Virus record (IMG/VR): IMGVR_UViG_2920292642_000002
Span: 19,431-83,430 of that record
DNA: 64,000 nucleotides
DNA from: a virus
Lineage: Duplodnaviria; Heunggongvirae; Uroviricota; Caudoviricetes
Reading direction: 5' to 3' (one strand)
Of this stretch, positions 13,600 to 29,230 are shown one piece after another; the stretch's first letter is position 1; each line of letters begins with the position of its first letter. Under the pieces are notes generated by a model, which was not told the DNA's origin, ran no database searches, and saw nothing but the letters and a program-made list of their open reading frames with translations. The translations under genes were made by a program, and so were the position numbers.

Positions 13600-14369
13600 C
13601 AGCCGTCCTCCAGTCCTGCCAAGGTCTCGCGAATCGTGGCGAGGCGCGTCGTGAAACCCAACGGCTCAAGAAACTCCTCGGATTTCCGCAGGTGGGTGAC
13701 GATAGCCTCCTTCGTGATGGCTCCGTCCTTGATCCGCTTGTGGAAGTATTCGGCCGGCGTCAGGTTCTCAAGCGCGTGAGGACCCTTGGCCTGAGCGACG
13801 ATCTGGAATCGCCTGAGCTTGATGTCCGCCTCCGAGGGAGGATGGTGATCGTCGATCCGATCGACCTCGACCATTTCCGGGAAAGCAATGACTTCATTTT
13901 CGTCCGACAGGAACAGCAGGACATTCGGCACCGGTAGGCGTCCGACCGTCACCGTGGGTTGGTGGGAGCCGGAGAGGTTGGCGAACTGCTCGGCGCGGGC
14001 ACGCTTGGTCGTCCACGAGAAGCCTGTGTGGTTGAGTGCAGAGCCTCCGCGATAGACCTTCAGAGGGGCATCGCGCCGCGCCGCCCGCTTGATGAAGTCA
14101 AGCTCCTCGGCACTCATCGCCATGAACCGGGCCGGCGACTGGATGCGCGCCAGAGTCAGCATGTTCCTGATCTCAACTCCATGCAGGAAGAGAGATTCCG
14201 ATTCACGCCAGACCCTGCGGAACAGGGACCAGAACGCCTCATCGGTAAGCTCCTCATGAATATCGTGCAGGGCGGAAACCCGCTCGAATTTGTCGTGCAT
14301 CGTGAAGATGGCACGGACGAGATCGTCCAACATGTTTTTTGCCTCCCCGTAGAGTTTTGATTGACACAA
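13599..14369 (-). CDS. hypothetical protein (256 aa)
   Basis: ORF track; non-shadow composition; weak R/S-T/E pattern (YRGGSA, FSWTT, EMVEVD) noted. Confidence 0.5.
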   Translation of the reverse strand: MCQSKLYGEAKNMLDDLVRAIFTMHDKFERVSALHDIHEELTDEAFWSLFRRVWRESESLFLHGVEIRNMLTLARIQSPARFMAMSAEELDFIKRAARRDAPLKVYRGGSALNHTGFSWTTKRARAEQFANLSGSHQPTVTVGRLPVPNVLLFLSDENEVIAFPEMVEVDRIDDHHPPSEADIKLRRFQIVAQAKGPHALENLTPAEYFHKRIKDGAITKEAIVTHLRKSEEFLEPLGFTTRLATIRETLAGLEDG

Positions 14370-14450
14370 TCGGCAAGGAAATCTATACGGACTGCGATCG
14401 CGACAATCAATAGACTCTGTCGCGTTTTAACAAGGGATAAGTGGGGCAAC

Positions 14451-15680
14451 ATGTCCGATTTCGAGTTTATCGCCCAAGAGGGCAAGATGAGGTCCCATAT
14501 CAAGGCGTGGAACAGGGGCGTCGAGTTCGACGAGGGCACCTATGCCCAACTTAGAAACATCGCCAGCCTGCCATTCATCCACAAGCATGTGGCCGCTATG
14601 CCAGATGCACATGTCGGCATCGGAGCGACGGTCGGTTCGGTCATCGCCACCAAGGGCGCAGTGATCCCGGCAGCGGTCGGAGTCGACCTCGGCTGCGGAA
14701 TGATGGCGTGGCGCATCTCCCTGAAGGAGAGCGATCTGCCCGACTCGCTTGGCCACATCCGCGCCGAGATGGAGCGCGCGACGCCGCACGGTCGCACCAA
14801 CAACGGTGAGAAGGGTGATCGCGGCGCGTGGGATAACGCTCCGACCTCTGCACTCAACCGCTGGAATGGTCTCTTCGATCGTTACGAACAGATCATCGCC
14901 AAGCACCCGAAGGCCAAGAGCTACAACGGCCTCAACCATCTCGGCACGCTCGGCACCGGCAACCACTTCATCGAGCTTTGCGGTGACGAGAATCAGGACC
15001 TCTGGGTCATGCTGCATTCCGGCTCGCGTGGCATCGGCAACAAGATCGGCTCCTACTTCATTGAGCAGGCGAAGAAGGAGATGGAGCGCTACCACGTCAC
15101 CGAGTACCTGCCGAATGCGGACTGCGCCTATCTGGTCGAACACACCGAGCTTTTCCAAGACTATGTCGAGGCGGTTAGCTGGGCTCAGGACTTCGCGTGG
15201 GAGAACCGCAAGCAGATGATGCACCAGACCATTATGGCCCTGCGGAAGGTGCTGCCGCCGTTCGCTGTAACCCAAGAGGCGATCAACTGCCATCACAACT
15301 ACATCTCTCGCGAGCATCATTTCGGCGAGAACGTGATCGTCACGCGCAAGGGCGCTGTCCGGGCGCGCGAAGGTGATCTCGGGATCATCCCCGGCTCCAT
15401 GGCAACCGGCTCCTACATCGTGCGCGGCAAGGGGAATCACGATTCCTTCTGCTCGTGCTCGCATGGTGCCGGCCGGCGCATGAGCCGTGGTCAGGCCTTC
15501 AAGGCGATCAGCCTCGAAGACCACATCAAGGCGACCGAGGGGGTTGAGTGCAGAAAGGATGCCGACGTGATCGACGAGAGCCCGGCAGCCTACAAGGACC
15601 TCGGCGCGGTGCTCGCCGCCCAGTCCGATCTCGTCGAGGTCGTGCACCGGCTGCGGACGCTCGTGAACGTCAAGGGTTGA
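14451..15680 (+). CDS. rtcB: RNA-splicing ligase RtcB (3'-phosphate/5'-OH RNA ligase)
   Basis: VGVDLGCGM, GNHFIELCGDEN, HSGSRGIGNKIG, SCSHGAGRRMSRGQA metal/GTP-binding motifs; start aligned to canonical RtcB N-terminus (MSDFEFIAQEGKMRSHIKAW). Confidence 0.9.
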   Translation: MSDFEFIAQEGKMRSHIKAWNRGVEFDEGTYAQLRNIASLPFIHKHVAAMPDAHVGIGATVGSVIATKGAVIPAAVGVDLGCGMMAWRISLKESDLPDSLGHIRAEMERATPHGRTNNGEKGDRGAWDNAPTSALNRWNGLFDRYEQIIAKHPKAKSYNGLNHLGTLGTGNHFIELCGDENQDLWVMLHSGSRGIGNKIGSYFIEQAKKEMERYHVTEYLPNADCAYLVEHTELFQDYVEAVSWAQDFAWENRKQMMHQTIMALRKVLPPFAVTQEAINCHHNYISREHHFGENVIVTRKGAVRAREGDLGIIPGSMATGSYIVRGKGNHDSFCSCSHGAGRRMSRGQAFKAISLEDHIKATEGVECRKDADVIDESPAAYKDLGAVLAAQSDLVEVVHRLRTLVNVKG

Positions 15681-15865: not shown

Positions 15866-16042
15866 ATGGAATCTGTTGTCGTTGAGTTCCCGACTGGGCG
15901 GCGCGAAGTCGCCGCCTATCTCGACACGTCGCGAAGGCGTGCGCTCCAGCTTCCAGTGGTCACGCCAGCACCGATTCCCGGCTATCGCTTCGAGCAGTCG
16001 ATCGCCGGAGACTGGTACGCCTTTGAAACATGGAGGGACTAA
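15866..16042 (+). CDS. hypothetical small protein (MESVVVEFPTGRREVAAYL...)
   Basis: internal Met of ORF 15773..16042; coupled TAATG to next gene. Confidence 0.35.
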   Translation: MESVVVEFPTGRREVAAYLDTSRRRALQLPVVTPAPIPGYRFEQSIAGDWYAFETWRD

Positions 16043-16452
16043 TGTCTGATCCTTCTCCGTGGGCCAACCCGCCTAAGAACGTTCCGGAACCTCGGCGTCC
16101 ACAGGCCTTCGTCGCGATCTCATCAGTCGAATATGACCGGGTCTGTGAGCACCTGATCCGGGTGGCGGCTGGTCTTAGACGCCTTGCCGGTAAGAAGGTC
16201 GCCCTTGGTTTTGGCTGGACCACCATGCCGGCGTTGAAGCTCGACGATAGTCAATTGCGGGAGCGGGTCGTCATCAACAACGACATTCCGCAGCGGTACG
16301 GACGCCTTCTCGACGATAGGGGTGAATGGGCTGAAGCACCCCTTACCAATCTCTTTCCCTCGATCGAGGACAGGTCGAAGGAAGACGATGAGGTAGGTCA
16401 GTGGACCTACTTCTTTGTGGACTGGTTCGAAAGGCCGGCGTGCCATGGGTAG
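16042..16452 (+). CDS. hypothetical protein (about 136 aa, MSDPSPWANPPKN...)
   Basis: ORF 16030..16452 from ATG 16042. Confidence 0.4.
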   Translation: MSDPSPWANPPKNVPEPRRPQAFVAISSVEYDRVCEHLIRVAAGLRRLAGKKVALGFGWTTMPALKLDDSQLRERVVINNDIPQRYGRLLDDRGEWAEAPLTNLFPSIEDRSKEDDEVGQWTYFFVDWFERPACHG

Positions 16453-16606
16453 CGCGGCCGACGACCTGTTCGACGCGGTGCTGCGTGAGCAGGAGATGCG
16501 ACATATCCTGCGCACCGCCTGCCCCTGTCACAATGAGAGCAACTGGTTCCGCAACGACGATGGCGTGATGGAATGCCGTCAATGCGGGGAAATGGTGGAT
16601 GAATAG
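16445..16606 (+). CDS. hypothetical small zinc-ribbon-like protein (CPCHNESNWF...CRQCGEM)
   Basis: ORF 16415..16606 from internal ATG 16445. Confidence 0.35.
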   Translation: MGSAADDLFDAVLREQEMRHILRTACPCHNESNWFRNDDGVMECRQCGEMVDE

Positions 16607-16607
16607 G

Positions 16608-17069
16608 ATGAGTGCAGAGCCTCAATACAAGAACATTCCAACGGTCTGCGTCACCGTCGTGCCGTTGACCACTGACAACAGGTTCAGCGGCATATTGCTG
16701 GTGAAGCGCGGTCTCAAGGACGATTGGCACGGTAAGTTGGCGCTACCGGGCGGCTATCAGGAGTTTGGCGAGACGTGGCAGGAGGCAGCCGCGCGCGAAG
16801 TTCGCGAGGAGACCGGGCACGAGGTCGAGATCGCGAGCAGGCCTTTTGCAGTCATGACGGTTCCGTCCGGCCACAACCTAATTTTCGGCGTGGCTTATCC
16901 GATCCCGTTCGACCAGCATGCCAACTACGAGCAGGTCGAGACGCTGGAGATCATGGCCGGCCGGGAGCCGTTCGAGCTTGCCTTTCCAGCGCACACCCAG
17001 ATTTACAATACGTGCCTGAGATTCCTCCGACAATCGCTGGACCTGAGCCACCTTTTCAGTAAAACTTGA
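16608..17069 (+). CDS. NUDIX hydrolase
   Basis: Nudix box GGYQEFGETWQEAAAREVREETG. Confidence 0.7.
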   Translation: MSAEPQYKNIPTVCVTVVPLTTDNRFSGILLVKRGLKDDWHGKLALPGGYQEFGETWQEAAAREVREETGHEVEIASRPFAVMTVPSGHNLIFGVAYPIPFDQHANYEQVETLEIMAGREPFELAFPAHTQIYNTCLRFLRQSLDLSHLFSKT

Positions 17070-17117
17070 CAGATACGTCCAGAATATCTAACCGAGAACG
17101 TAAATGGGAGTGTACTC

Positions 17118-17285
17118 ATGAACGCCTTCTTCGCCCTCGCCTTCTGGCTCACCATGCTCGCGTCGTGGCTGACGCACTTCTACGTCTCGATCGTCGACGA
17201 CAGGATCGCCCTCCTCTTCCTTGGGACGTTTGTCCCTCCGATCGGCTGGCTGCACGGCCTCGGCGTCTGGGTGGGTCTCTTCTGA
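17118..17285 (+). CDS. small membrane protein (55 aa)
   Basis: manual translation MNAFFALAFWLTMLASWLTHFYVSIVDDRIALLFLGTFVPPIGWLHGLGVWVGLF; GGGAG RBS upstream. Confidence 0.4.
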   Translation: MNAFFALAFWLTMLASWLTHFYVSIVDDRIALLFLGTFVPPIGWLHGLGVWVGLF

Positions 17286-17527
17286 TGGCCCAGCCGGTCG
17301 CGTTTGCCGGTCAGACGGACATCCTCGGCGCACCAAAGGGGAGTGCCGGCGTCAAGCCCCTCCCCTGCTATATGGACGGATCACAGGTGATCTCGGCGTG
17401 GCAACTTTCGCCTGAGGAGATCGAGGAGGTCCTGCGCACGGGCATCGTCTGGTGCTTCGTCATGAGCAGCAACCAGCCGCCAGTTTACCTTACCGGCACG
17501 AACCCGTTTCCCAAGACACAAAACTGA
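17285..17527 (+). CDS. hypothetical protein (80 aa)
   Basis: ATG overlapping previous stop (TGATG); tail of ORF 17066..17527. Confidence 0.4.
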   Translation: MAQPVAFAGQTDILGAPKGSAGVKPLPCYMDGSQVISAWQLSPEEIEEVLRTGIVWCFVMSSNQPPVYLTGTNPFPKTQN

Positions 17528-17561
17528 CGACAATGAGCCTCTGTCATGCTATCTCTTTGAC

Positions 17562-17768
17562 ATGACAGAGATTCAGAAGCTTGAGCGCGCAATCAACCAA
17601 GTCCTCGCCGAGGCAAAGCCCGGTGACGTATTCCTGTGTTGCGCGCAGCACGTAGGCGACTGCCCGCACTATGCCGAGCAGACCTGCGACTGTCCCATGA
17701 TCACGATCACCGAGGAGACGACGGCCGCTGAGGTCGTCGCCCTCTATCAGCAGCAGCCGAAGCACTGA
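17562..17768 (+). CDS. hypothetical Cys-rich small protein (68 aa)
   Basis: ORF track. Confidence 0.4.
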   Translation: MTEIQKLERAINQVLAEAKPGDVFLCCAQHVGDCPHYAEQTCDCPMITITEETTAAEVVALYQQQPKH

Positions 17769-18041
17769 TCATTCCGTCGTCGTGAACTTGGTGCGGTGCT
17801 TGACACAGAACGGGCACTGCCATCCGTACTTGCGCGTTCTCTTGTAGCCACGCGCTCTCGCTTCCTCGGCCGATCGCTTCATCATCCAGTCCGGCCGCTG
17901 CCCAGTCCTGAACAGGAGACCTGAGTTTTCCGCGTCTTGCGTGGCGCACGACATCATCCCATAGGGCGGAGCCTTGCGCCAAATACTGTCCGGCACATCC
18001 TCAGCCGGCGTGTCGCAGTGTATTTCAATCCAGACAGCCAT
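17769..18041 (-). CDS. hypothetical protein with C-terminal zinc-ribbon (CPFCVKH)
   Basis: internal Met (MAVWIEIHCDT) of ORF 17769..18287; upstream remainder is high-GC shadow. Confidence 0.4.
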   Translation of the reverse strand: MAVWIEIHCDTPAEDVPDSIWRKAPPYGMMSCATQDAENSGLLFRTGQRPDWMMKRSAEEARARGYKRTRKYGWQCPFCVKHRTKFTTTE

Positions 18042-18510
18042 TCCAAATCTCCTCGGTATCAATGACCGGAAAACCCTGCTGGCGCGACCGGCAGACCATG
18101 TCGGCCGTCCCGGAGCCTCCGGGCATGGCCACGACGGCATGTGGGCGCGGCTGGCTGTCCAGTATGGCTTGGTTGCGGCGAGGCCCTGCGGCCTTCCTGA
18201 AGCGCTCCCAGTCGGCCTTGGTGATCGGCAGTGCACGCTCGCCGACTGAGTTCGATCGAGCCCAGAAGCCGAGCAGCTTGTCGGCACCTGTAGCGTTCCC
18301 GTGGGTGATGAAGCTCGGGTTGAGGATGGACTTGATCGGCTGCATCGAGAGATCGAGGAACTTCAAGTTAAGGAAATTCCGTCCACCGGTCCCGGCAATG
18401 ACAATGCGTTGGAGAGGACCCCAGCGCTCGATGATCTCAGTTAGAGCGGCGCGCGCCTCGGCTATCAGCGCGCGCCGGTATCTCTCCAACACCTTATCCG
18501 TCGTCGTCAT
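18025..18510 (-). CDS. SLOG/DUF2493-like Rossmann-fold protein (161 aa)
   Basis: IVIAGTGGRNF ... HAVVAMPGGSGTADMV pattern typical of phage YspA-like SLOG proteins. Confidence 0.45.
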   Translation of the reverse strand: MTTTDKVLERYRRALIAEARAALTEIIERWGPLQRIVIAGTGGRNFLNLKFLDLSMQPIKSILNPSFITHGNATGADKLLGFWARSNSVGERALPITKADWERFRKAAGPRRNQAILDSQPRPHAVVAMPGGSGTADMVCRSRQQGFPVIDTEEIWNGCLD

Positions 18511-19189
18511 TGGACGCTTCGATCTGGAGCGGCAGCGGGCCGGACTGGAGAGCGGTGATGCCGGCGCGATTGATCACGTTCTGCATGTAGCCGTGTATTT
18601 CCTGTTTGGCCTTCTCGACGACCTCTTCCGTGTACTCGGCGAAGGATTTTGCGAGGAAAGGATAGTTGGCGGTGAGGTCCTGAATGACCATATCAAGAGC
18701 GTCCTTGATCTCAGCCGTCTTACCCTTCGGCAGGTTCATGCTGTCGATCCTCTCCTGCACCGTCTTGATGCGTCCGACCGTCCGCTTCGAGGCTTCCTTG
18801 AACTCCTCGGCAGACTGCTTCGTCCGAGCTTCCGGATCAGGAAGCGCAGGGATGATCTCTCCACCGATGTAACGGATCGTGCACTGAGTTCCGTCGCCGA
18901 CGTTAGGCGACGAGATCAGCGTCGCCCACTGCGCCTCGGACATATCGATCTCGATCAACTGTCCACGAGCATGTGGTCGATCGTGATAGAGGCTGCGGTG
19001 AAGCTCGCTGCGCGCGATCCTGAGACGGATGGTGGCATTGTGTTGGAAGTCAGAGCCATAGAGGCTGGCACGCCCTCCGGTCATACGACTGACACCAACC
19101 TGCCCGAAGGCAGGATGTGTGGTGACAGTCTCTCTGTCTCTGCCGGGTCCCACGGCCGCTACGGTCTTCGGCTCTTCAACTGGTCTCAT
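18494..19189 (-). CDS. hypothetical protein (about 231 aa)
   Basis: ORF 18494..19210 taken from Met at 19189. Confidence 0.45.
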   Translation of the reverse strand: MRPVEEPKTVAAVGPGRDRETVTTHPAFGQVGVSRMTGGRASLYGSDFQHNATIRLRIARSELHRSLYHDRPHARGQLIEIDMSEAQWATLISSPNVGDGTQCTIRYIGGEIIPALPDPEARTKQSAEEFKEASKRTVGRIKTVQERIDSMNLPKGKTAEIKDALDMVIQDLTANYPFLAKSFAEYTEEVVEKAKQEIHGYMQNVINRAGITALQSGPLPLQIEASNDDDG

Positions 19190-19599
19190 CAGAACAAAAC
19201 CTCTCCCCAATTACGCCGCGACCTGATTGCGGCTTCGTCAATCATCGACTGTTTCCACTTGACCCGGCCGACGACTACCACGTCCTCGATCGGGTAACAG
19301 CATCCGGCCACGCCGGAGCCACAGACGTACTCAGCTTGGGTCTCGTCGCACCATGCAAGGCGCGTCTTACCCTTGCCTGTATCGAACTCGCGGCACGACT
19401 CTTCGAGGATGTCTGCGATGATGGCCTCGAATCCAGTCAGTTTCGACGGCTTTCGCACATGTGCCTTCATGTAGCCCGTGACGCGCCACGTGTAGGGTCG
19501 CTGTCGCCACTTGGCATCCTCCACCGCTCTAGGATGATCCTCGCGCAGTTGGATGATATCGCCGATCCGAGGCACAAAACGAACAAGGGCGGTGCCCAT
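19189..19599 (-). CDS. hypothetical protein (136 aa)
   Basis: ORF track. Confidence 0.45.
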   Translation of the reverse strand: MGTALVRFVPRIGDIIQLREDHPRAVEDAKWRQRPYTWRVTGYMKAHVRKPSKLTGFEAIIADILEESCREFDTGKGKTRLAWCDETQAEYVCGSGVAGCCYPIEDVVVVGRVKWKQSMIDEAAIRSRRNWGEVLF

Positions 19600-19678
19600 G
19601 AATCTATCTCCGTCGTGTTGACGTTGATAGATTTACTAGACACCACCCGTCAAGTCAATCTGGACAGTTCAGGCAAGG

Positions 19679-19873
19679 TTAATGCTGGACGCCCTGAACC
19701 TGTTTTCCGCAGCCGGGGCAGACGATATACCAGACGGTGTCTCTACCGCCACCGTAGTCGGTGTAGCTGAGGGTCTGGACTTCCGACCGGGTGTAACGGA
19801 GCCGGGAGGCGCACGAGCGGCAGGTGCATTCGAACACCTGCGACTCGTCCCGACCGACAATCTGAACCATCAA
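19679..19873 (-). CDS. small zinc-ribbon protein (64 aa; CTCRSC...CPGCGK)
   Basis: ORF track; 4-nt overlap with nadV start. Confidence 0.45.
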   Translation of the reverse strand: MMVQIVGRDESQVFECTCRSCASRLRYTRSEVQTLSYTDYGGGRDTVWYIVCPGCGKQVQGVQH

Positions 19874-21288
19874 AGCCCCCTGTACTGTGCCCGCTCTCGA
19901 ACCTCGGCGAAGTTCCAGTGCTTGATCATCGGCACGGTGCTACGATCATCCATCCGGTAGACCGTCTGGAGGAGATCGCCGGGGACGGTGTATGGTCCTT
20001 CCGTGGGGATGGTTACGATGCCTTCGGTGCCGGGCATCCGGATGACATGCTGCACGCCGGCCTTTGACGCCTTCGACGGGTCGGTCTTCGGCTTCTTCTG
20101 GACGCTGTACCACGAGCCATCCGTGCGACCGATCGCCGAGGCCTTCATGGCGAAGCGCAGCGTGTCGCGGTTGACGTGCTGAAGCAGGCCGGCACCCATG
20201 CCGAAGGCGACGTTGTCGAGCGACCAGCCGTTTCCGATCATGGCGTCGACGATCTCGGTCAGGCTCTCGCGATCGATGCCGTCGCCCTGAATGAGGCGGA
20301 CCTTCGGGTGCAGGACCTTGTAGCCCTTCGAGTTGGTGGTGAAGCCCCATTCGTCGGCAAGCATCTCCAGCGACGACAAGACCAGATCAAGCGGATCGCC
20401 GCTGTCCGGGCGGATCACCAACGTCCCCTCGCGCGCATTCACGAGAGCACTCAGGTCACGACTCCAAATCTTCTGGAGTGCGTTCCAGTAGTCGTAGCTG
20501 TCGGAGACGACGGCGACGAGTCCACGCGGGAACTTCTCCAGCATGTTGCGATAGGCGTCGTTCTCGCGATCCGCACCCCACGACGTGATCGTGCTGTGCT
20601 CGGCGGCCGGGATCGAGAAGCCAGCCATGCCAGCATGGTAGTAGCGCTGGGCGAAGTACGCACCCATCATGGTGTCAGTGCCCTTGAAGTTCACCAGATG
20701 CGCCGCGCCGCCGATGCCGGCCTGCTCATTTGCACCCGTACCACGCGCGCCGAAATCATGGAGCTTGAACGGGGCCTGCCCGGCAGGATCATCGGACGAC
20801 CGCATCAGCGCGTCGACGATCACCTTCTTGATCTCGCGCGAGTTGGTGGCCACGGTCGACGGATACCAGACCGCGCGCAGCAGCGCCGTCTCGACGTAGC
20901 TGGTCAGCCACGGCAGGCGCGGATCGGTGTTGACAACCTGCACCATCGGAGTCCCGGTTGGCACCACCGTGCCCTCGGAAAGCGCCTTGATCTCTAGTGG
21001 TAGATATCCGTCGTATTCGTGAGCGATGATCTCCCAGCCGGTGCGATTGAACGGTACGCCGTGCGCCTCGCAGAAGGCCTCAGCCTCATCGATCACATTG
21101 GCGGTGACCTGCGGACCCCACAGCAGATATTCCTTGATGAACATCTGGAGGCCGAAGAAGACGACCTCGTCGTAGCCCTCCACCGGCCGCGCCTCGATGT
21201 AAGAGTTCACGAAGGCCGTCTCAGGCGGGTACTGGAGGAAGTGCGAAGTCTTGTAGCTGTCGGTATTCAGAATCGGATTGATCTTCAT
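19870..21288 (-). CDS. nadV: nicotinamide phosphoribosyltransferase (NadV/NAMPT)
   Basis: N-terminus MKINPILNTDSYKTSHFLQYP and full-length 472 aa NAMPT-like sequence. Confidence 0.9.
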   Translation of the reverse strand: MKINPILNTDSYKTSHFLQYPPETAFVNSYIEARPVEGYDEVVFFGLQMFIKEYLLWGPQVTANVIDEAEAFCEAHGVPFNRTGWEIIAHEYDGYLPLEIKALSEGTVVPTGTPMVQVVNTDPRLPWLTSYVETALLRAVWYPSTVATNSREIKKVIVDALMRSSDDPAGQAPFKLHDFGARGTGANEQAGIGGAAHLVNFKGTDTMMGAYFAQRYYHAGMAGFSIPAAEHSTITSWGADRENDAYRNMLEKFPRGLVAVVSDSYDYWNALQKIWSRDLSALVNAREGTLVIRPDSGDPLDLVLSSLEMLADEWGFTTNSKGYKVLHPKVRLIQGDGIDRESLTEIVDAMIGNGWSLDNVAFGMGAGLLQHVNRDTLRFAMKASAIGRTDGSWYSVQKKPKTDPSKASKAGVQHVIRMPGTEGIVTIPTEGPYTVPGDLLQTVYRMDDRSTVPMIKHWNFAEVRERAQYRGL

Positions 21289-21290
21289 GA

Positions 21291-22304
21291 TTACAGTCCC
21301 AACATGTCCTGAATGATGCTGAAGTGATCTTCGAAGAACTCACCGCGCTCCAGTGAGTCGACCGGGTGCCAGTTGGCACTCTCGGCGTCGTCCGCGCCGT
21401 TCACCCGCCACAACGGCTTGGCGTCCGGCAGACGGAACAGGAAGGCGTGCGTTACCGTCCGACCGCGAGTTGACCGATAGGGATTGTCGAAGACCTTGCT
21501 CTCGGTGATGTACGTGTCTAGCCGGCCGGGAGGGATGCGTCCGCGCCCGTCCGCGATCTCCGTCTCCTCGCGCAGTTCACGCACGGCCGCTGTACGGATG
21601 CGCTCGTACTGGTCGATGAAGCCGCCCGGCAGTGCGAGCAGACCCTTGCCGGGATAGTCTCCGCGCCGGATCAGGAGGATGTGGCCGGACTGGACGACGA
21701 CGGCGTCGACCGTGATGAAGGTCGGCGGGAAGGGTGCCGCCTCCCACGAGCGCCGGTAGCGCGAGATCGACTCGTGCTCGTAGTGGAGATTCCAATAGAA
21801 GTCGGAACTTACCCAGTCGTTCAGATATTGCCCGACTTCAGCAGGCATGGCCGTCGCGTCGATCTTCTTGAGGAAGGAGAAATAGGCGTTACGAATCGTG
21901 GTCGCGTCGAGCGTTCTGCGCGTCGACTGGATGTCGAGCGAGCCCCAGTCCGGGAAGAGCTTCAGATAGAAACTCGACTGATCCTTCGAGTAGCCGACCA
22001 GAACGATGTCGTCGCCATAGGCGTTTTCGTTCACGCTGTTGCGGACCTCAGCGATCCAGCGCTCATCGCTGGGATAGTCGCAGATCGGCAGGAACTCGAC
22101 CCGGCCGATCTCCTCGTCGGACAGGGTGCGGCTGATCATCTGCACCCGTTCATGGAACAGCCACGGGTTGCGCGTCGACCGCGCCGCGCCGGCCGAGCCG
22201 ACGAGGATCAGAAGTTTGTCGAGTTGGGAAAGAGATTCGCGGACGATCTGGAGATGGCCGCAGTGAAAGGGCTGGAAACGCCCTATAAAGACGCCAGTGC
22301 GCAT
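21291..22304 (-). CDS. natV: bifunctional NMN adenylyltransferase / Nudix ADP-ribose pyrophosphatase (NatV/NadM-Nudix)
   Basis: N-terminal nucleotidyltransferase GRFQPFHCGHL (HxGH) plus C-terminal Nudix box GGFIDQYERIRTAAVRELREETE. Confidence 0.85.
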   Translation of the reverse strand: MRTGVFIGRFQPFHCGHLQIVRESLSQLDKLLILVGSAGAARSTRNPWLFHERVQMISRTLSDEEIGRVEFLPICDYPSDERWIAEVRNSVNENAYGDDIVLVGYSKDQSSFYLKLFPDWGSLDIQSTRRTLDATTIRNAYFSFLKKIDATAMPAEVGQYLNDWVSSDFYWNLHYEHESISRYRRSWEAAPFPPTFITVDAVVVQSGHILLIRRGDYPGKGLLALPGGFIDQYERIRTAAVRELREETEIADGRGRIPPGRLDTYITESKVFDNPYRSTRGRTVTHAFLFRLPDAKPLWRVNGADDAESANWHPVDSLERGEFFEDHFSIIQDMLGL

Positions 22305-22392
22305 GAGACACCCTCATGATGTTGAAGAGGTCACGCCCACCGCGTGACCATGCTCTTACTACTCCGATCGGAGTCGTTTGTCAAGAATTAGT

Positions 22393-22932
22393 TTACATCG
22401 CCAGAACAGGACTGAGTTCGGCAAGCCGCTGCAACGGCATCCGCTGGTCGGCGATCATGCGGTAGAGCGGCATCTGTTCGCGACCACCTTGGAAGAAGGT
22501 CATCATGAAGAAATCGAACTCGTCGATGTGCTTGCCGGCCCAGATCGGATCGCGCGTCAGAAGGTCATGCTGGTGGTGGCAGTAGCGATCGGCGAGCTTG
22601 ACCAGCGACGCCCGTGGATCGGACGCAGCGCGCGGCAGTGAGATGGCCTTGGCTTCGCTCCGGGACAATCCCTCGGGATCGGTCACGAGGTCGACGATCC
22701 GCGCAATCTCGTTGCCGTAGGCGTAGCGGATGTCCTCGCTCTCGACATCGGTATCCTCGACGATGTCGTGCAGCCACGCCGCCGCGATGGTCTCCTGATC
22801 GGTCGTGAACAGTGCCACCATCCCGGCGACGGCCGTCAGGTGGTGCGTGTAGGGAAGATTGCCGTAGGTCTGGTTGCGGTGATGCTCGACCGCGAGCGCA
22901 CGCGCCGTATCGGCGACAGTTCGGTTTTTCAT
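22393..22932 (-). CDS. HD-domain (p)ppGpp hydrolase-like protein (small alarmone hydrolase-like)
   Basis: HHRNQTYGNLPYTHHLTAVAGMVA ... AAWLHDIVEDT resembles RelA/SpoT HD hydrolase domain; start at MKNRTV after GGAGAC RBS. Confidence 0.65.
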   Translation of the reverse strand: MKNRTVADTARALAVEHHRNQTYGNLPYTHHLTAVAGMVALFTTDQETIAAAWLHDIVEDTDVESEDIRYAYGNEIARIVDLVTDPEGLSRSEAKAISLPRAASDPRASLVKLADRYCHHQHDLLTRDPIWAGKHIDEFDFFMMTFFQGGREQMPLYRMIADQRMPLQRLAELSPVLAM

Positions 22933-23042
22933 ACAGGTCTCCTTGAGCCGGTCAGAGGTAATCCTTGACCTCCCGGACTGTCCAGAGTATCTGTCCAAGA
23001 CTGCGCGACTGTCAAGCGTATCTTTTCACTCTTATGGTTAAC

Positions 23043-23117
23043 GACGTGGTGGCGGAGTGGCTTACGCGCCGGATTGCAACCCCGGTCACGCCGGTTCAAT
23101 TCCGGCTCACGTCTCCA
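23043..23117 (+). tRNA. tRNA-Cys(GCA), CCA encoded, U73 discriminator
   Basis: manual cloverleaf: acceptor GACGTGG/TCACGTC, T-arm GCCGG-TTCAATT-CCGGC, anticodon loop TTGCAAC; A31-C39 mismatch. Confidence 0.6.
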
Positions 23118-23131
23118 ACTCCCCTGAGCAA

Positions 23132-23356
23132 ATGCGGCATTTCAAGATCATCACTCAAGACGACTGCAAATACTGTGACCGCGCGAAGGCGCTGATTCGG
23201 GAGATGGGTGATACCTTCTCCGAGATCAATCTTTCGACATTCACTGAGGAGGCGCGGGGCGCGTTCAAGAAACGCTACGGGACCGTTCCGCAGGTCTTCC
23301 TCGAAACGGTGCGCATTGGCGGCTCCGACGATCTTGCGGCATGGTACGCTACTTAG
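23132..23356 (+). CDS. glutaredoxin-like protein (NrdH/Grx family, 74 aa)
   Basis: CKYC active site and GTVPQVF...GG motif. Confidence 0.7.
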   Translation: MRHFKIITQDDCKYCDRAKALIREMGDTFSEINLSTFTEEARGAFKKRYGTVPQVFLETVRIGGSDDLAAWYAT

Positions 23357-23816
23357 CCGACTCCTTGACGTGGTAGGCGTCGCCTTCCTTGTCCTTGACC
23401 AGTATTCCCCTCTTGGCCATCTCGGACAGAGCGGCCCATACCGTCTGCTTGCGGATACCATCACCGAGCGCTGCGATGATCTCGGCGCTCGTCATCGGAC
23501 GTTCCTGACCAATTAATATGGTTGTGATTTGCTGCTTTATCGGCGGTTTTTTCTCGATAACGGCCGACATGAAATCCTTTGCGGCGCGCTTCGTAGATGG
23601 TGGGTTTACCGGGCCATTCGATTTTCGAGTCTTGGGAGCGGCGTGCGATTCCGTTTGTCGTTGCTGGTCGGCTTTCTTGAAGGAGTGGTAGGCCCCGGCC
23701 TCGATCGGCTCTCGGAGAGATTCGATCGTGTTTCTGACATCCTCCAATTTGTTTATTCTGATTTTTAATGCTTCGATCTCGCGGTCGATCTGGGCGCACA
23801 TCGCATCGATGTCCAT
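23349..23816 (-). CDS. hypothetical protein with C-terminal winged-helix DNA-binding domain
   Basis: TSAEIIAALGDGIRKQTVWAALSEMAKRGILV resembles wHTH regulators. Confidence 0.45.
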   Translation of the reverse strand: MDIDAMCAQIDREIEALKIRINKLEDVRNTIESLREPIEAGAYHSFKKADQQRQTESHAAPKTRKSNGPVNPPSTKRAAKDFMSAVIEKKPPIKQQITTILIGQERPMTSAEIIAALGDGIRKQTVWAALSEMAKRGILVKDKEGDAYHVKESAK

Positions 23817-24099
23817 TAACGACTCCCTGTCCCCTTGGTTTGTTGTTGCTGCGGTTCTCCGCAGACGATTACCTCACCCAAGGTCAGACCTTATCTGAAA
23901 TATGGCATCATGGGTATAACTCGTGCGTTAAGGAGGCTGGAAATTAACGGACGAAATCATAAGTCATTATGTCGCATAATTCGTCGGCTTTTAAGCCGGG
24001 TGGGTGCACCATCTAGGGTGCTTTCTGAAGGCGGGCAAGCGACTCATACGTGTACGCATGAAAAAGCCCCGACCGCTATCGGCCGGGGCTCTGTACTCA

Positions 24100-24417
24100 T
24101 CACATTTTGTCGAAATCGACAGCGTCATTGACCGGGATTAGAAGCTCTTCGAGATCGAGCATCACGTCCTCGTACTTCTTGATGAAGGCCTTGGTCACCT
24201 GCACGTCCGGGAGCGCGACGCTGTTGGGCTGGGCGTAGAGGGTGCCGAGCCCATCGACGTAAGCATCCTTGTTGACCTGCCTGACGCGGAGGGTCGTGTC
24301 ACCCTTCGGGCGCTCATGCTTGAACCAGTTCCAGAATGCCTTGTCGACATCCTCGGCCTTGCCCCACGAATTTCCTCCGACCACGATAAAGTGGTTGAGC
24401 GGCTGTTGCTCACTCAT
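24100..24417 (-). CDS. hypothetical protein (105 aa)
   Basis: ORF track; followed by hairpin plus U-tract at 24059-24092. Confidence 0.5.
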   Translation of the reverse strand: MSEQQPLNHFIVVGGNSWGKAEDVDKAFWNWFKHERPKGDTTLRVRQVNKDAYVDGLGTLYAQPNSVALPDVQVTKAFIKKYEDVMLDLEELLIPVNDAVDFDKM

Positions 24418-25106
24418 GTTGACACTCCTATAAGGTTTTCAAAGAACATTCCGCCTCATTGGCAGCATCTATATCATAGCATATCTGGTTGATATTGCAA
24501 CAACTTTGTTCTTTGTAAGAATACTTGCGAGACAAGACTAGGTTGAGTGCAGACTAACTTTGAATACTACTGCAAACACGAAAAAGGCCCGGTGGGAGAC
24601 GGGCCTTGATGGTTAGGGGTTGAGTGCAGAGACTAACATCGCAGGAATGATGACGATCTGGAGGAGAGCGGCTGGTCTTGATCCGCAGACCTCTCCCGAG
24701 GTCCCAACCGTTTTCGAGACGGTGCCGGCGCGCCTGTCCGGTTCACTCTCCATAACTGGTCCGAGGGGAGAGAATTTGCACTCCCACAGTCTAAGACGGC
24801 CGCTTTACAGGCGGTTAGGCTCACTCGTGCCCAGCCCTCGGATGCGCGATCGCGTATAAAGCGAGTTTATCCGGAATCGCGTATAAATGGCGGAAGGCGG
24901 TGGCCCTGATCCACTAACCCGTGCGGGTCTCATCCGTTTAGCAAACGGAGCCGGCCCGAGCCGGTTCACCTTCCAGAAATGAAATGGAGGAGACGGAGAG
25001 CAGGCCAGTATCGCTCGCGCTCGATTACGGGCGCGCCGGCCTGTCTCCTAGCCCTCTTACTCGCGCCATCCTATCGAGCCAACAGGACCGCTTCGGCAGG
25101 GCATCT

Positions 25107-25192
25107 TGGCGGAGAGCGGAGAACTCGAATCCCACACCTTGCGGTGCGCTTCGCCTTCCAAGCGGGCCGGGAACCTATCCCGTTCACTCTCC
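25107..25192 (-). tRNA. tRNA-Ser(GGA), class II
   Basis: manual fold: acceptor GGAGAGU/GCUCUCC, long variable arm, loop UUGGAAG, T-loop TTCGAGT, CCA encoded. Confidence 0.5.
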
Positions 25193-25196
25193 ATAC

Positions 25197-25272
25197 TGGT
25201 CCCAGCGGCAGGATTCGAACCTGCGACCTCTCCCTTATGAGGGGAAAGCACTACCGCCGTGCTCCACTGGGT
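25197..25272 (-). tRNA. tRNA-Met(CAT) (elongator or Ile-lysidine type)
   Basis: manual fold: T-arm GCAGG-TTCGAAT-CCTGC, anticodon loop CTCATAA, CCA encoded. Confidence 0.6.
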
Positions 25273-25748
25273 TAATCGCGTCGGACCACCTGAATGGGGC
25301 CGTCCGACAGAATGTCGTGCTTGATGCAGACCTCGACGGCGCGCTCGGCCGTCGCGCCCATCTCCAGAGCACCCACGGCGATCATGTCGCCGGAGCCGAA
25401 GACGTGCCATTCGCTCTCGACCTCGTAAGGTGGATCGTCCCCCTCGAAGCGGATGCAGACGCCGTCCGGCTTGATCACGAAGCCGGTGCAGTTGTCGTCC
25501 TTCCCAGTCGGCTCGATCCGAGGACTGCTGTACTCCAGATTCTGGAGGAACTTGGGGAAGTTGTCCGAGCGGCACCAGCGGATGAACTTGGCGACGTAGG
25601 GCGCTTCGCCGGTCCCACCGACGAGGTAGGCTTCACCATCGACATCGACGCGAGCGATCTTCTCGGCGTGGCCGAGCACGTTCCAGTTGCGTCGGATCAA
25701 CTGAGAATCCGACGCAAGGACACCGTCACGATAGACGAGGACAGTCAT
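25272..25748 (-). CDS. HslV-like N-terminal-nucleophile peptidase (proteasome beta-subunit family)
   Basis: MTVLVYRDG N-terminus (Thr2) and GSGDMIAVGALEMGATAERAVEV similar to HslV. Confidence 0.5.
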   Translation of the reverse strand: MTVLVYRDGVLASDSQLIRRNWNVLGHAEKIARVDVDGEAYLVGGTGEAPYVAKFIRWCRSDNFPKFLQNLEYSSPRIEPTGKDDNCTGFVIKPDGVCIRFEGDDPPYEVESEWHVFGSGDMIAVGALEMGATAERAVEVCIKHDILSDGPIQVVRRD

Positions 25749-26131
25749 CAGTAGCGCGCCGCGCCGAGCGAACGGGAAGGCGCAGCGCCCAGACCGGTCT
25801 CGGTGGACTTCTTGCCCTTCTTCTTGTTGTCGTCGAAGAACTTGTCGAGCGACTGGACCTGCACCGCCTTGACGATCAGGCGAACGATCGCGACCGGGTA
25901 GGTATTGGCCGAGGCCGAAACATCTCCGAAAGTGGCGATCGACGACTCGGTGTCGCCATTGCCGATCTTCCCGCCGACATCCCCCTTTCCGAGGATCGAA
26001 TTGACGGCCGCAGCCGCCTTGGTCACGTCGGTGAGGTCGGTGCCGAGGAGATTGTTCGCTGCTGCGAGCGCCGCGTCCTCGTCGTTGAGCTTGCTGATTT
26101 CGACCAGCTTCTCGAAGTCGTTTCTGTCCAT
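25748..26131 (-). CDS. hypothetical protein (127 aa)
   Basis: ORF track. Confidence 0.45.
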   Translation of the reverse strand: MDRNDFEKLVEISKLNDEDAALAAANNLLGTDLTDVTKAAAAVNSILGKGDVGGKIGNGDTESSIATFGDVSASANTYPVAIVRLIVKAVQVQSLDKFFDDNKKKGKKSTETGLGAAPSRSLGAARY

Positions 26132-26203
26132 GCCCGGAACTCCCTTGTGGTTAGGCTTGCGGGATTCCGTTTAGGGGTTCTTTACGGCAGTGTCAAGAAA
26201 AAC

Positions 26204-26277
26204 TGGATGCCCTGCCACGACTCGAACGTGGACTCATCGCTTCAAAGGCGCGCGTCCTACCTTTAGACGACAGGGCA
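26204..26277 (-). tRNA. tRNA-Gln(TTG)-like; weak anticodon stem
   Basis: manual fold: acceptor TGCCCTG/CAGGGCA, T-arm CCACG-TTCGAGT-CGTGG, loop CTTTGAA, CCA encoded. Confidence 0.5.
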
Positions 26278-26287
26278 GGAGTGAGGG

Positions 26288-26360
26288 TGGCTCGGCAGGT
26301 ACGGGTCGAACGTACATCGGCTGATTCAGAGTCAGCGTGCTTACCATTAGCGACTGCCGA
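26288..26360 (-). tRNA. tRNA-Gln(CTG)
   Basis: manual fold: anticodon arm GCTGA-CTCTGAA-TCAGC, T-arm GTACG-TTCGACC-CGTAC, CCA encoded. Confidence 0.6.
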
Positions 26361-26366
26361 ATAAAC

Positions 26367-26443
26367 TGGTGCCAAGGGGAAGTTTCGAGCTTCCGACCTC
26401 CGGGGTTTCAATCCGGCGCTCTAACCATCTGAGCTACCAAGGC
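26367..26443 (-). tRNA. tRNA-Phe(GAA)-like; U-U mismatches in acceptor stem
   Basis: manual fold: D-arm GCTC-AGATGGTTA-GAGC, loop TTGAAAC, T-loop CTCGAAA, CCA encoded. Confidence 0.5.
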
Positions 26444-26451
26444 ATAAAAAT

Positions 26452-26537
26452 TGGCTCGCGAGGGAGGGATCGAACCTCCGCCCCCTTCGGGGTCCACCGG
26501 TTAACAGCCGGGAACATTACCACTCTGCCACTCGCAA
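26452..26537 (-). tRNA. class II (long variable arm) tRNA with anticodon loop CTGTTAA (reads GTT/Asn-like; one base from Tyr GTA)
   Basis: manual fold: variable arm CCCCGAAGGGGG, T-arm GGAGG-TTCGATC-CCTCC, acceptor starts UU. Confidence 0.45.
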
Positions 26538-26546
26538 TCATAACAC

Positions 26547-26634
26547 TGGAGAACCGGGTGGGGATCGAACCCACGGTGGGCTTTCGCCATCGGATTAAAA
26601 GTCCGCGCCCTTCGACCAACTTGGATACCGGTTC
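26547..26634 (-). tRNA. class II scaffold tRNA with Lys anticodon TTT
   Basis: manual fold 88 nt: acceptor GAACCGG/CCGGTTC, variable arm GGCGAAAGCC, loop CTTTTAA, T-arm GTGGG-TTCGATC-CCCAC. Confidence 0.45.
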
Positions 26635-26640
26635 ACGATC

Positions 26641-26715
26641 TGGAGCCCTGCTCGGGGACCGCACCCGCTTCTACCGCTTACAAGGCGGCTGCTTCACTCT
26701 CAAAGCTTTCAGGGC
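26641..26715 (-). tRNA. tRNA-Thr(TGT)-like; non-canonical T-loop TGCGGTC
   Basis: manual fold: D-arm GCTT-TGAGAGTG-AAGC, anticodon arm GCCGC-CTTGTAA-GCGGT. Confidence 0.5.
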
Positions 26716-26721
26716 ATTGTC

Positions 26722-26796
26722 TGGAGCCTCGGTCGGGAACTGCACCCGCTTCTGACCGGTACGAACGGCCTGCTTCACTCGCAAAGCTTTCGAGGC
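26722..26796 (-). tRNA. tRNA-Thr(CGT)-like; non-canonical T-loop TGCAGTT
   Basis: paralog of previous unit; anticodon arm GGCCG-TTCGTAC-CGGTC. Confidence 0.5.
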
Positions 26797-26807
26797 ATAA
26801 TAAATAA

Positions 26808-26895
26808 TGGAGTACCCGGCTGGATTCGAACCAGCGGTGTGCTTTCGCAGGCGGATTAAGAGTCCGACGCCATCGACCAACTCGGCCACGGGTAC
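26808..26895 (-). tRNA. class II scaffold tRNA with Lys anticodon CTT
   Basis: manual fold 88 nt: D-arm GCC-GAGTTGGTCGAT-GGC (Ser-like), loop CTCTTAA, variable arm TGCGAAAGCA, T-arm GCTGG-TTCGAAT-CCAGC. Confidence 0.45.
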
Positions 26896-26901
26896 ATTAG
26901 C

Positions 26902-26975
26902 TGGAGCCGACACGTGGAATTGAACCACGGCTCCGTCCTTACCACGGACGGCGTCTACCACTGACATATATCGGC
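26902..26975 (-). tRNA. tRNA-Thr(GGT)
   Basis: manual fold: anticodon arm CGTCC-GTGGTAA-GGACG, T-arm CGTGG-TTCAATT-CCACG. Confidence 0.6.
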
Positions 26976-27060
26976 AAAATTTAACTGTCTCGATTAATCG
27001 AGCCGCAACTTGTCCTTGCTACAACCGCTGTGCTGATCACAACACCACGAGGCAACAGAC

Positions 27061-27243
27061 ATGATGAAACTGCTGAAGCGCTTCCAGAGCGATGAGTCTG
27101 GAGCAACTGCAATCGAATACGGCCTGATCGCTGCTTTGATCGCGCTGGCGATCGTCGTCGGCGCTGGCGCACTCGGCGAGAACCTGAACGCCAAGTTTCA
27201 GGCAATCAGTGACCAGTTGGCGGGTACGCCGGAGGGAGAATAG
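27061..27243 (+). CDS. flp: Flp/Fap-family type IVb (Tad) pilin precursor (60 aa)
   Basis: prepilin signature KRFQSDESGATAIEYGLIAALIALAIVV matching the Flp motif; own terminator follows. Confidence 0.75.
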   Translation: MMKLLKRFQSDESGATAIEYGLIAALIALAIVVGAGALGENLNAKFQAISDQLAGTPEGE

Positions 27244-27282
27244 AGTTCCTTGTCCGCGTTACAGCAACGACAAGCAACTGAC

Positions 27283-27310
27283 CGCCCTCCGGGGCGGTTT
27301 TTTTTTTTTG
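27283..27310 (+). terminator. rho-independent terminator of flp-like gene
   Basis: CCGCCCTCCGGGGCGG hairpin followed by T11. Confidence 0.65.
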
Positions 27311-27386
27311 GTGGAGACGGTGAGAATCGAACTCACAACAGCCTGCTTGCAAGGCGGGCTCGCTAACCCTTAGAACATGCGTCCCC
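27309..27386 (-). tRNA. tRNA-like, probably Ala(TGC); D-arm unclear
   Basis: T-arm GTGAG-TTCGATT-CTCAC, acceptor GGGGACG/CGTCTCC, loop CTTGCAA. Confidence 0.4.
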
Positions 27387-27563
27387 AAACTCTGAAAAAT
27401 GATCCGGCAGGCGGGCGAGTGTCCCCGCGTCATCTCCCCGGCTAGACAGCACCGAGGTTTTGCAGCCACGCCTTGTCTAAGGGCGGGTCGCTATGTCCGG
27501 AAGGTCACGTTATTCCACGCCAGACCATCCGCTGCTCGTCGCGTTCTGAGCTACTGCCGAAAC

Positions 27564-27640
27564 TGGACCTTCCGGCTGGGATCGAACCAGCGCCCTCCAG
27601 CTTCGGAGGCCGGCGCTCTTGTCCGCTGAGCTACGGAAGG
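27564..27640 (-). tRNA. tRNA-Arg(CCG)
   Basis: manual fold: anticodon arm CCGGC-CTCCGAA-GCTGG? with T-arm GCTGG-TTCGATC-CCAGC, acceptor CCTTCCG/CGGAAGG. Confidence 0.55.
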
Positions 27641-27643
27641 AAT

Positions 27644-27718
27644 TGGAGCGGGTAGCGAGGGTCGAACTCGCGCCTCTAGGCTGGCAACCTAGTGCTCTAC
27701 CAACTGAGCTATACCTGC
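27644..27718 (-). tRNA. tRNA-Gly(GCC)
   Basis: manual fold: anticodon arm CTAGG-TTGCCAG-CCTAG, D-arm GCTC-AGTTGGTA-GAGC, T-arm GCGAG-TTCGACC-CTCGC. Confidence 0.6.
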
Positions 27719-27905
27719 AATTTCGCGGGGTGGGGCTCAGGTCATCACTCCTGTCCCCTGAGCGGGTGATGATCCGGTTTGGGGCCGGTCCCTCTCCCCC
27801 TGCTCGGAGAGCCCGAAGGCTCAATCCTTGGAAACTCTCGACAGGGGTCACCTGTCGCTAGGCAAGGCTCTGAAGGTTGACGAGACCTTCGCCCTTGCGT
27901 GCCTA

Positions 27906-27983
27906 TGGCCTCCCCGGAGAGATTCGAACTCCCGACACGGGAGGTAGAAGCTCCCTGCTCTAGGTCCACTGAGCTACGGAGAG
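27906..27983 (-). tRNA. tRNA-Arg(TCT)
   Basis: manual fold: anticodon arm GGGAG-CTTCTAC-CTCCC, T-arm GGGAG-TTCGAAT-CTCTC. Confidence 0.55.
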
Positions 27984-28431
27984 GAGATCGCTTTTGGAGG
28001 GAGGCCAGCAGGCCATCGTTAGATGGAGTGTCAACACAACGGAGTCGCAAGACTTGCCGAAGCTGCCGACCTCCCGCCAAAGGCGATCTAGGTGCCGAAA
28101 GCGTGAGACTACCGCTTTCGATGACGACCTTCCCGCATTATCCGACGCCTTGCGAGCGTGGTTCTCGGGATGTCCACGCCGAGCATATTGCTATGTCTCG
28201 ACGTATTCGTCAATGCCGCCTTTTTTAGCGCGTGGCGTTTCGCGCGTCGCTGCGTGCTATTCGGCGTCTCGTCGACCGTGAGCCTTGCGGGCTCTTCGCG
28301 GCTGCTACACCGCTACGATCTCTTCCTCACCGACACCCTCCAGCTTGCGACCTTCAGGTGACCCAGTTCCCCGCAGGGCTGGGCATTAGGCATCTTTCAC
28401 ACGCAACCGGGACAGGCTTTGCGTTTTGTTA

Positions 28432-28506
28432 TCGTGAGGCCGGATTTGAACCGGCGACCGATGGCTTAGAGGGCCATTGCGCTACCAACTGCGCTACTCG
28501 CAACCC
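28432..28506 (-). tRNA. tRNA-like (anticodon loop CCTCTAA, TCT with C33; no encoded CCA) - possible pseudo-tRNA
   Basis: T-arm GCCGG-TTCAAAT-CCGGC, D-arm GCGC-AGTTGGTA-GCGC, acceptor with mismatch. Confidence 0.35.
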
Positions 28507-29141: not shown

Positions 29142-29146
29142 ATAAA

Positions 29147-29222: not shown

Positions 29223-29230
29223 ATTGAAAA

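Follow-up and report, generated by a model that had tools for sequence, protein, structure and literature searches.

A predicted NARP2-type natV-nadV gene pair in a siphophage related to Mesorhizobium phage Cp1R7A-A1

The natV-nadV gene pair and its genome

We analysed a stretch of 64,000 nucleotides (nt) from the tailed-phage record IMGVR_UViG_2920292642_000002 of IMG/VR, called the window in the following, which carries side by side a gene for a nicotinamide phosphoribosyltransferase (NAMPT), nadV, and a gene for a bifunctional nicotinamide mononucleotide (NMN) adenylyltransferase (NMNAT) and Nudix hydrolase, natV. A first-pass annotation had described the two genes as neighbours and had assigned them to the NAD+ (nicotinamide adenine dinucleotide) reconstitution pathway 2 (NARP2) of phages. 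Both open reading frames (ORFs) were found exactly where this annotation had put them, 2 nt apart, and a small ORF follows them:

21291-22304, minus strand: natV, 337 amino acids (aa); bifunctional NMN adenylyltransferase (residues ~1-175) and Nudix hydrolase (~195-337), NadM-Nudix type
19870-21288, minus strand: nadV, 472 aa; nicotinamide phosphoribosyltransferase (NAMPT)
19679-19870, minus strand: small ORF, ~63 aa, Zn-ribbon-like; PHROG 2834, 2.5e-15

The natV stop codon and the nadV start codon are separated by a gap of 2 nt (junction TAA-tc-ATG), neither ORF is interrupted, and the start codons are consistent with the alignments. The ATG of the small ORF overlaps the stop codon of nadV (TGATG), and the small ORF is probably translationally coupled to nadV. 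The arrangement is operon-like: natV and nadV belong to a run of seven co-directional ORFs on the minus strand that spans 22932 down to 18025. With a GC content of 0.62 the segment from 20 to 22 kb is not distinctive within the window, where values range from 0.56 to 0.64.

NadV combines an NAMPT_N domain (Pfam, 1.3e-25) with a type II phosphoribosyltransferase catalytic domain (NAPRTase, 3.1e-54) including the catalytic residues, which defines it as a NAMPT. It scores 582 bits against the NCBIfam model NF006629 (cut-off 405) and matches PHROG 448 “nicotinamide phosphoribosyl transferase” with 9e-159. The closest solved structures are the NAMPT of Xanthomonas (PDB 7yqo, 3e-132) and human NAMPT (2gvg, 3e-122), aligned over residues 3-469; identity to the human enzyme amounts to 48%. 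Human residue numbers were transferred via the pairwise alignment. All 14 residues considered are conserved (Y18, F193, R196, D219, H247, R311, D313, G353, D354, G383, R392, K400, K415 and K423 in human numbering), with Y12, F179, R182, D205, H231, R293, D295 and G335/D336 as the NadV counterparts of the human catalytic set. In NAMPT, D219 determines nicotinamide specificity, and H247 is the histidine that becomes autophosphorylated. In an exact-sequence look-up this NadV sequence was not recorded in public assemblies.

NatV contains the Pfam domains CTP_transf_like (2.6e-11) and NUDIX (1.3e-17), and seven NCBIfam PRK05379 “bifunctional NMN adenylyltransferase/Nudix” models match it end to end, the best being NF003786 (379.7 bits, 1.4e-113, full length). 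Models for NadR gave a weak match to the NMNAT part alone. The NadM-Nudix enzymes of Synechocystis (PDB 2qjo, 3e-77) and Francisella (2qjt, 5e-59) align with residues 3-334, and the match scores of both NadV and NatV are far beyond chance. The NMNAT motif GRFQPFHCGH (residues 8-17) and the segment ATTIR ending at R138 fit the patterns GxFxPxHxGH and (S/T)xxR, respectively. The Nudix box (G228-x5-E234-x7-R242-E-L-x-E246-E247) is conserved; its sequence, GGFIDQYERIRTAAVRELREETEI, has every catalytic position of the consensus GX5EX7REUXEEXGU, and the penultimate G of the box is E in NatV and R in the solved Synechocystis enzyme. We aligned NatV with NatV of phage KVP40 (34% identity over the full length), the ortholog of Cp1R7A-A1, one further ortholog from a viral contig and two bacterial orthologs. 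In this alignment of six sequences the motif residues of both domains are invariant across phages and bacteria. Directly after the Nudix box an insertion of five residues is common to both rhizobiophage NatV proteins.

The pair lies in the genome of a phage. Profile matches in the window include DNA polymerase A (PolA), an SNF2 helicase, an integrase-family recombinase, RtcB, a large terminase (TerL) with an intein, an SPFH protein and a glutaredoxin, and 26 tRNA genes are present. A megablast search of the region against 50,697 phage records returned Mesorhizobium phage Cp1R7A-A1 (MT188704) as the sole match, with 76% nt identity over the pair; this phage is thus a different species. The literature describes it as a siphophage of virulent type that has tRNA clusters and is allied to PhiCbK-like phages (PMC9437464). 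Window and Cp1R7A-A1 are collinear in inverted orientation from ~71 kb to ~6 kb, with 40-87% aa identity per protein, and the phage of the window probably infects Alphaproteobacteria. The orthologous pair, gp119/gp120 (66% and 70% aa identity), is already named NAMPT and NMNAT/ADP-ribose (ADPR) pyrophosphatase in the GenBank record of Cp1R7A-A1. The local order is also the same, namely an HD hydrolase gene, natV, nadV and a 63-aa ORF, with tRNA-Cys beyond the HD gene; the ortholog of the small ORF, immediately after nadV, is 77% identical. The accessory island to which the first-pass annotation had assigned the pair is, by this comparison, a syntenic block conserved in both phage species and not a private insertion. 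Ratios of non-synonymous to synonymous substitution rates (dN/dS) against Cp1R7A-A1, calculated by the Nei-Gojobori method and approximate at such divergence, were 0.38 for NadV, 0.29 for NatV, 0.15 for PolA and 0.12 for RtcB. This indicates purifying selection on NadV and NatV that appears looser than that on PolA and RtcB.

Pathway assignment and origin of the operon

Osterman et al. (2024) describe NARP2 by a clade of Nampt proteins separate from the clade of Adps-associated Namat proteins. In their data an Nmnat co-occurs with 94% of the NARP2-clade Nampts, no phage was found with both pathways, and NadV/NatV of KVP40 serve as the tested example of NARP2 (Osterman et al. 2024). NARP1, which consists of Adps and Namat (e.g. 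in Bacillus phage SPbetaL1), has a homologous transferase (35% identity to NadV) that is matched by the same hidden Markov models (HMMs), and it also yields NAD+ as end product. Its substrate is ADPR pyrophosphate (ADPR-PP), whereas NARP2 uses phosphoribosyl pyrophosphate (PRPP) and an additional NMNAT step. The first-pass annotation had suggested HMM searches for its domains. NAPRTase, CTP_transf_like and NUDIX were all found, but NARP2 cannot be separated from NARP1 in this way, since the NARP1 Namat of SPbetaL1 reaches 593.7 bits on NF006629 and outscores both NadV (582 bits) and KVP40 NadV; the model was therefore rejected as a discriminator. As HMMs alone are insufficient, the distinction has to be drawn by other means, namely the partner gene, the motifs and the tree.

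All three point to NARP2. An Nmnat is encoded by the adjacent ORF 21291-22304, which has the CTP_transf_like plus NUDIX architecture of KVP40 NatV. A tblastn search with SPbetaL1 Adps as query found no match in the 64-kb window or in the complete 131-kb genome of Cp1R7A-A1. In a neighbour-joining tree of 20 sequences, in which deep branches are unresolved, the transferases of SPbetaL1, DirtyBetty, Staphylococcus GE1 and Pseudomonas SRT6 form a long-branched Namat clade with 100% bootstrap support that does not include NadV. Each of these four adjoins an Adps/Prs-like gene. NadV pairs instead with its Cp1R7A-A1 counterpart (100%) among canonical NAMPTs (KVP40 NadV, human, Xanthomonas). Proteins of the NAMPT type carry the motifs LHDFG-x-RG, IQGDG and FG-x-G-x-GLLQ, those of the Namat type HDFS-x-RG, IYGD(S/A) and G(V/I)GS(F/Y)xY; NadV reads DFGARG, IQGDG and FGMGAGLLQ, not DFSMRG, IYGDS and GVGSYTYQ as Namat does. 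In pairwise comparison NadV is 44% identical to KVP40 NadV (366 bits) and 35% identical to SPbetaL1 Namat (242 bits).

These results bear directly on the possibility that the phosphoribosyltransferase is a NARP1-type Namat, joining nicotinamide to ADPR-PP, and no NAMPT. The inability of the NCBIfam and Pfam models to tell the two types apart would leave room for it, as would the weak ADPR-PP activity of KVP40 Nampt. Against this, Adps was not found in the window or in Cp1R7A-A1, NadV stands outside the Namat clade with canonical NAMPT motifs, its identity to human NAMPT (48%) exceeds that to Namat (35%), and the adjoining Nmnat gene would be superfluous in NARP1. We consider a Namat at this locus barely credible.

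A third pathway, NARP3 (PnuC plus a NadR-like protein, as in phage Bas30), shares the final NMNAT reaction that gives NAD+ but starts from imported nicotinamide riboside via a transporter and a riboside kinase. Neither a PnuC transporter nor a NadR-type riboside kinase was detected by Pfam in the 48 window ORFs scanned. The features of NARP2 as described by Osterman et al. that can be read from sequence, i.e. the Nampt clade, an Nmnat, no Adps and a phage genome (TerL with intein, PolA, SNF2 helicase, 26 tRNAs and collinearity with Cp1R7A-A1), were all found here, and the classification as a NARP2-type pair proposed by the first-pass annotation is supported: natV-nadV appears to be a further example of the described pathway. 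KVP40 (NadV KVP40.0264, NatV KVP40.0162) has the same two protein families, an NMNAT plus Nudix NatV and no Adps. However, the KVP40 genes lie ~43 kb apart (138,214 and 94,507), whereas here they are adjacent in the order natV-nadV. KVP40 is moreover a T4-like Schizotequatrovirus, in contrast to the siphophage of the window with its relation to PhiCbK-like phages, and the KVP40 pair is known by experiment, the window pair from sequence alone.

The layout of the pair resembles that of bacterial operons. A genome scan yielded 33 bacterial loci with NadV identities of at most 63%, where the top values came from truncated matches; the closest cellular NadVs, mostly from marine Gammaproteobacteria, are 50-60% identical, and no prophage copy was among these loci. 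A NadM-Nudix gene lies directly upstream of nadV in the same order in 28 of the 33. Order and adjacency are thus shared with bacterial nadM-nadV operons (Synechocystis slr0787-type, Francisella, Acinetobacter), and two of their products (2qjo and 2qjt) align with NatV end to end. Unlike these chromosomal operons for housekeeping or regulated salvage, the window copy resides on a virulent-type phage genome. Because the layout is identical, the phage operon was probably captured from a cellular genome as one unit. In a scan of IMG/VR we found nine loci with a NadV of 43-55% aa identity and none closer; all nine had a NatV-like match within the fetched flank, and in five a full-length NatV homolog lies directly upstream of NadV in the same order.

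Proposed role in infection and alternative explanations

By homology to solved and assayed enzymes, NadV would convert nicotinamide and PRPP to NMN, and the N-terminal NMNAT domain of NatV would form NAD+ from NMN and ATP. The C-terminal Nudix domain is most likely an ADPR pyrophosphatase that would cleave ADPR to AMP and ribose-5-phosphate; this function is implied by the molecule names of 2qjo and 2qjt. Host Prs could turn the released ribose-5-phosphate back into PRPP. Expressed in infection, the pair would keep up the NAD+ pool, and a kept-up pool would blunt defences whose cleavage of NAD+ yields nicotinamide and either ADPR or ADPR-1P. Osterman et al. (2024) found that the KVP40 pair, co-expressed or knocked in, raises NAD+ and overcomes NAD+-depleting systems. 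According to a later paper, KVP40 NARP2 also cancels aRES defence, which NARP1 cannot do; the difference lies in the independence of NARP2 from ADPR. By analogy with the KVP40 pair, a counter-defence role may be expected for the window pair as well. We put the probability at roughly 85% that natV and nadV together form a phage operon of two genes that serves non-deamidating NAD+ salvage and, in the manner of NARP2, counter-defence.

Several observations weigh against this reading. NatV stays under the curated equivalog cut-off of NF003786 (379.7 vs 397 bits). Two minor changes are found in the active-site region of NadV, where human S275 and G384 are both replaced by A. The negative results for Adps and other NAD pathways cover 64 kb of this phage's genome. 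Finally, counter-defence does not follow from the genes alone, as the same operon is a housekeeping salvage operon in bacteria. The cut-off miss counts for little, because the validated KVP40 NatV scores merely 272 bits; with the Cp1R7A-A1 ortholog at 369 bits, the threshold leaves out known functional phage members.

The housekeeping role in bacteria leads to an alternative in which natV-nadV serves as an auxiliary metabolic module of general use, raising NAD+ for replication and nucleotide metabolism with or without a defence system in the host; counter-defence would then be at most a side effect. The identical nadM-nadV arrangement serves routine salvage in the 28 of 33 bacterial loci mentioned above, the pair has the replication module on one side and the tRNA array on the other, amid host-takeover and metabolic genes, and the KVP40 work of Lee, Li and Miller from 2017 is said to have framed the pair as NAD+ salvage. 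NARP2 furthermore overproduces NAD+ whether or not a defence is present, at a metabolic cost (Osterman et al. 2024, and the later aRES paper). An excess of NAD+ even without a defence system would suit a metabolic module, but a pathway reported to be costly or toxic argues for a specific selective benefit, and experiments show that the KVP40 pair neutralises several NAD+-depleting defences. We regard a general metabolic module as unlikely, though far from negligible; the two readings are not mutually exclusive.

Selection could also act mainly on the Nudix domain, which would remove ADPR, ADPR-derived immune signals or NAD-capped RNA, with NAD+ synthesis being secondary. ADPR-derived molecules are signals of Thoeris defence, the Nudix box of NatV is intact and conserved, and the window has another Nudix gene, a stand-alone one, at a distance of 4 kb. 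Yet conservation is just as strong in the NMNAT domain and in NadV, and both are under purifying selection, PDB titles characterise NadM-Nudix enzymes as ADPR pyrophosphatases coupled to NAD+ synthesis, and nothing points to an activity on cyclic ADPR isomers. Such a division of roles seems very improbable to us, and NAD+ salvage with counter-defence of the NARP2 type remains the preferred explanation of the pair.

Neighbouring genes and significance

Upstream of natV the following features were identified:

22393-22932, minus strand: HD hydrolase gene, 179 aa; Mesh1-like small alarmone hydrolase, hydrolase-only RelA/SpoT family
22330-22348, minus strand: hairpin GTCACGC-ggtgg-GCGTGAC in the 88-nt HD-natV spacer, 7-8 bp, without U tract
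22986-23015, minus strand: sigma-70-like promoter candidate TTGACA-18-GATACT upstream of HD-natV-nadV, 10/12 consensus matches

The HD gene is the first of the cluster, and its start codon (ATG at 22932) is preceded by an AAGGAG ribosome-binding site as read from the sequence. The protein matches HD_4 (Pfam, 6.4e-16), Mesh1 (PDB 3nqw, 1e-15) and human HDDC3 (3nr1/5vxa), and its HDxxED motif (LHDIVEDT) and KLAD are intact. An ortholog with 60% identity occupies the same position in Cp1R7A-A1. Beside nadV the gene was absent in the 42 other loci (9 viral, 33 bacterial), i.e. the pairing occurs in Cp1R7A-A1 only, and a wider link between HD and nadV was rejected on this ground. Homologs occur in 213 phage records and are, among the matches listed, apparently unrelated to NAD genes. 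The HD gene is thus a neighbour and not a defined component of NARP2. An NAD-related role is conceivable because Mesh1 is reported to hydrolyse NADPH (PMC9765508). It seems improbable that HD-natV-nadV is a three-gene unit in which the Mesh1-like hydrolase acts as a functional NARP2 accessory. If this were true, the HD protein could dephosphorylate NADP(H) and thereby enlarge the NAD(H) pool, or could instead remove pyrophosphorylated nucleotides made by defence enzymes; its role would parallel that of the Adpp phosphatase that extends NARP1.

The fold of the HD-natV spacer has an energy of -29.7 kcal/mol (z = -2.5). Its hairpin occurs once in the window and is also present in Cp1R7A-A1, the two versions differing by one compensatory change from C-G to G-C; it could tune the expression ratio, with RNA processing, stability or attenuation as candidates. 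In the window phage and Cp1R7A-A1, natV has the same ribosome-binding site and start region (CATGAGGGTGTCTCATG). Promoter-type sites are not enriched in the region (2 found vs 1.4 expected from shuffles), so that support for the promoter candidate is weak.

Further features of the window are listed below:

8884-12633, plus strand: 1249-aa ORF; PHROG 10537 (unknown function), 9.6e-145; 58% identical to Cp1R7A-A1 gp138
14361-15680, plus strand: RtcB tRNA-splicing ligase; Pfam 3.5e-122; conserved in Cp1R7A-A1
16599-17069, plus strand: stand-alone Nudix hydrolase, 156 aa, canonical Nudix box; nearest PDB entries MutT/NUDT1/NUDT15-like
18025-18510, minus strand: SLOG/YAcAr (DUF2493)-like gene; PHROG 289 ‘GTP-binding domain’; ‘DprA-like’ in some phages
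23043-31431, 25 of 26 on minus strand: tRNA array, syntenic with the Cp1R7A-A1 tRNA clusters
25272-25748, minus strand: HslV-like peptidase; PHROG 1040; conserved in Cp1R7A-A1
31563-32414, minus strand: SPFH/Band 7 protein; conserved in Cp1R7A-A1
46566-49379, plus strand: TerL with intein, 937 aa
62125-62139, 62595-62609, 63162-63176 and 63767-63781: TTAA-N7-TTAA (CtrA-box pattern)

The stand-alone Nudix gene has no ortholog in Cp1R7A-A1 and sits in a variable patch (~15.7-17.1 kb) of ORFs without matches. For the SLOG/YAcAr-like protein we found no PDB sequence match. Its family is present in 271 phage records. Rhodobacter phages and small podophages of Klebsiella are among the matches listed, and their genera are not among the leading NadV-carrying genera; an NAD-specific role was rejected as unsupported. 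The 238-aa ORF at 18494-19210 had no Pfam or PDB match, and 20 further ORFs at 33-63 kb had no Pfam matches. The 1249-aa ORF has weak primase/polymerase PHROG matches and no Pfam domain.

Among the genes of the tRNA array are three each for tRNA-Arg and tRNA-Leu and two for tRNA-Met. The window (junction 23117-23057) lacks four genes that separate tRNA-Cys from the glutaredoxin gene in Cp1R7A-A1 (15894-19926 of the compared locus): gp113 and gp114 are hypothetical, gp115 and gp116 are annotated as putative tail fibres. As a longest-ORF call from GTG at 23057, the glutaredoxin-like gene overlaps the end of tRNA-Cys; its true start is probably located further downstream. Weak Pfam matches to Intein_splicing and Hom_end_hint lie between the N and C domains of TerL. 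As the TerL of Cp1R7A-A1 is similar in length and 70% identical, it probably carries the intein too. Four TTAA-N7-TTAA sites fall within 1.7 kb, compared with 0.08 expected in the whole window. CtrA binding and regulation have been shown experimentally for Cp1R7A-A1 (PMC9437464), and the window ORF 55203-55679 is an ortholog of gp19, the Cp1R7A-A1 gene tested for CtrA. A theme of host takeover or counter-defence would be compatible, on circumstantial grounds, with the two Nudix domains, the alarmone hydrolase, RtcB and the tRNA array.

The natV-nadV pair represents expected biology and not a new type of system; it is already annotated in the closest relative. The operon layout, the conserved upstream Mesh1-like gene with its hairpin and the failure of HMMs to discriminate are modest points of note. 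The last of these matters for annotation pipelines: a NARP2 Nampt and a NARP1 Namat look alike to Pfam NAPRTase and NCBIfam NF006629, but the partner gene and the motifs do discriminate (DFG-x-RG, IQGDG and GxGxGLLQ in Nampt; DFS-x-RG, IYGDS and GxGS-x-x-Y in Namat). With the predicted pair, a Cp1R7A-A1-like siphophage would join the ~1% of phages that carry NARP2, here in the form of a compact natV-nadV operon with the layout of bacterial nadM-nadV.

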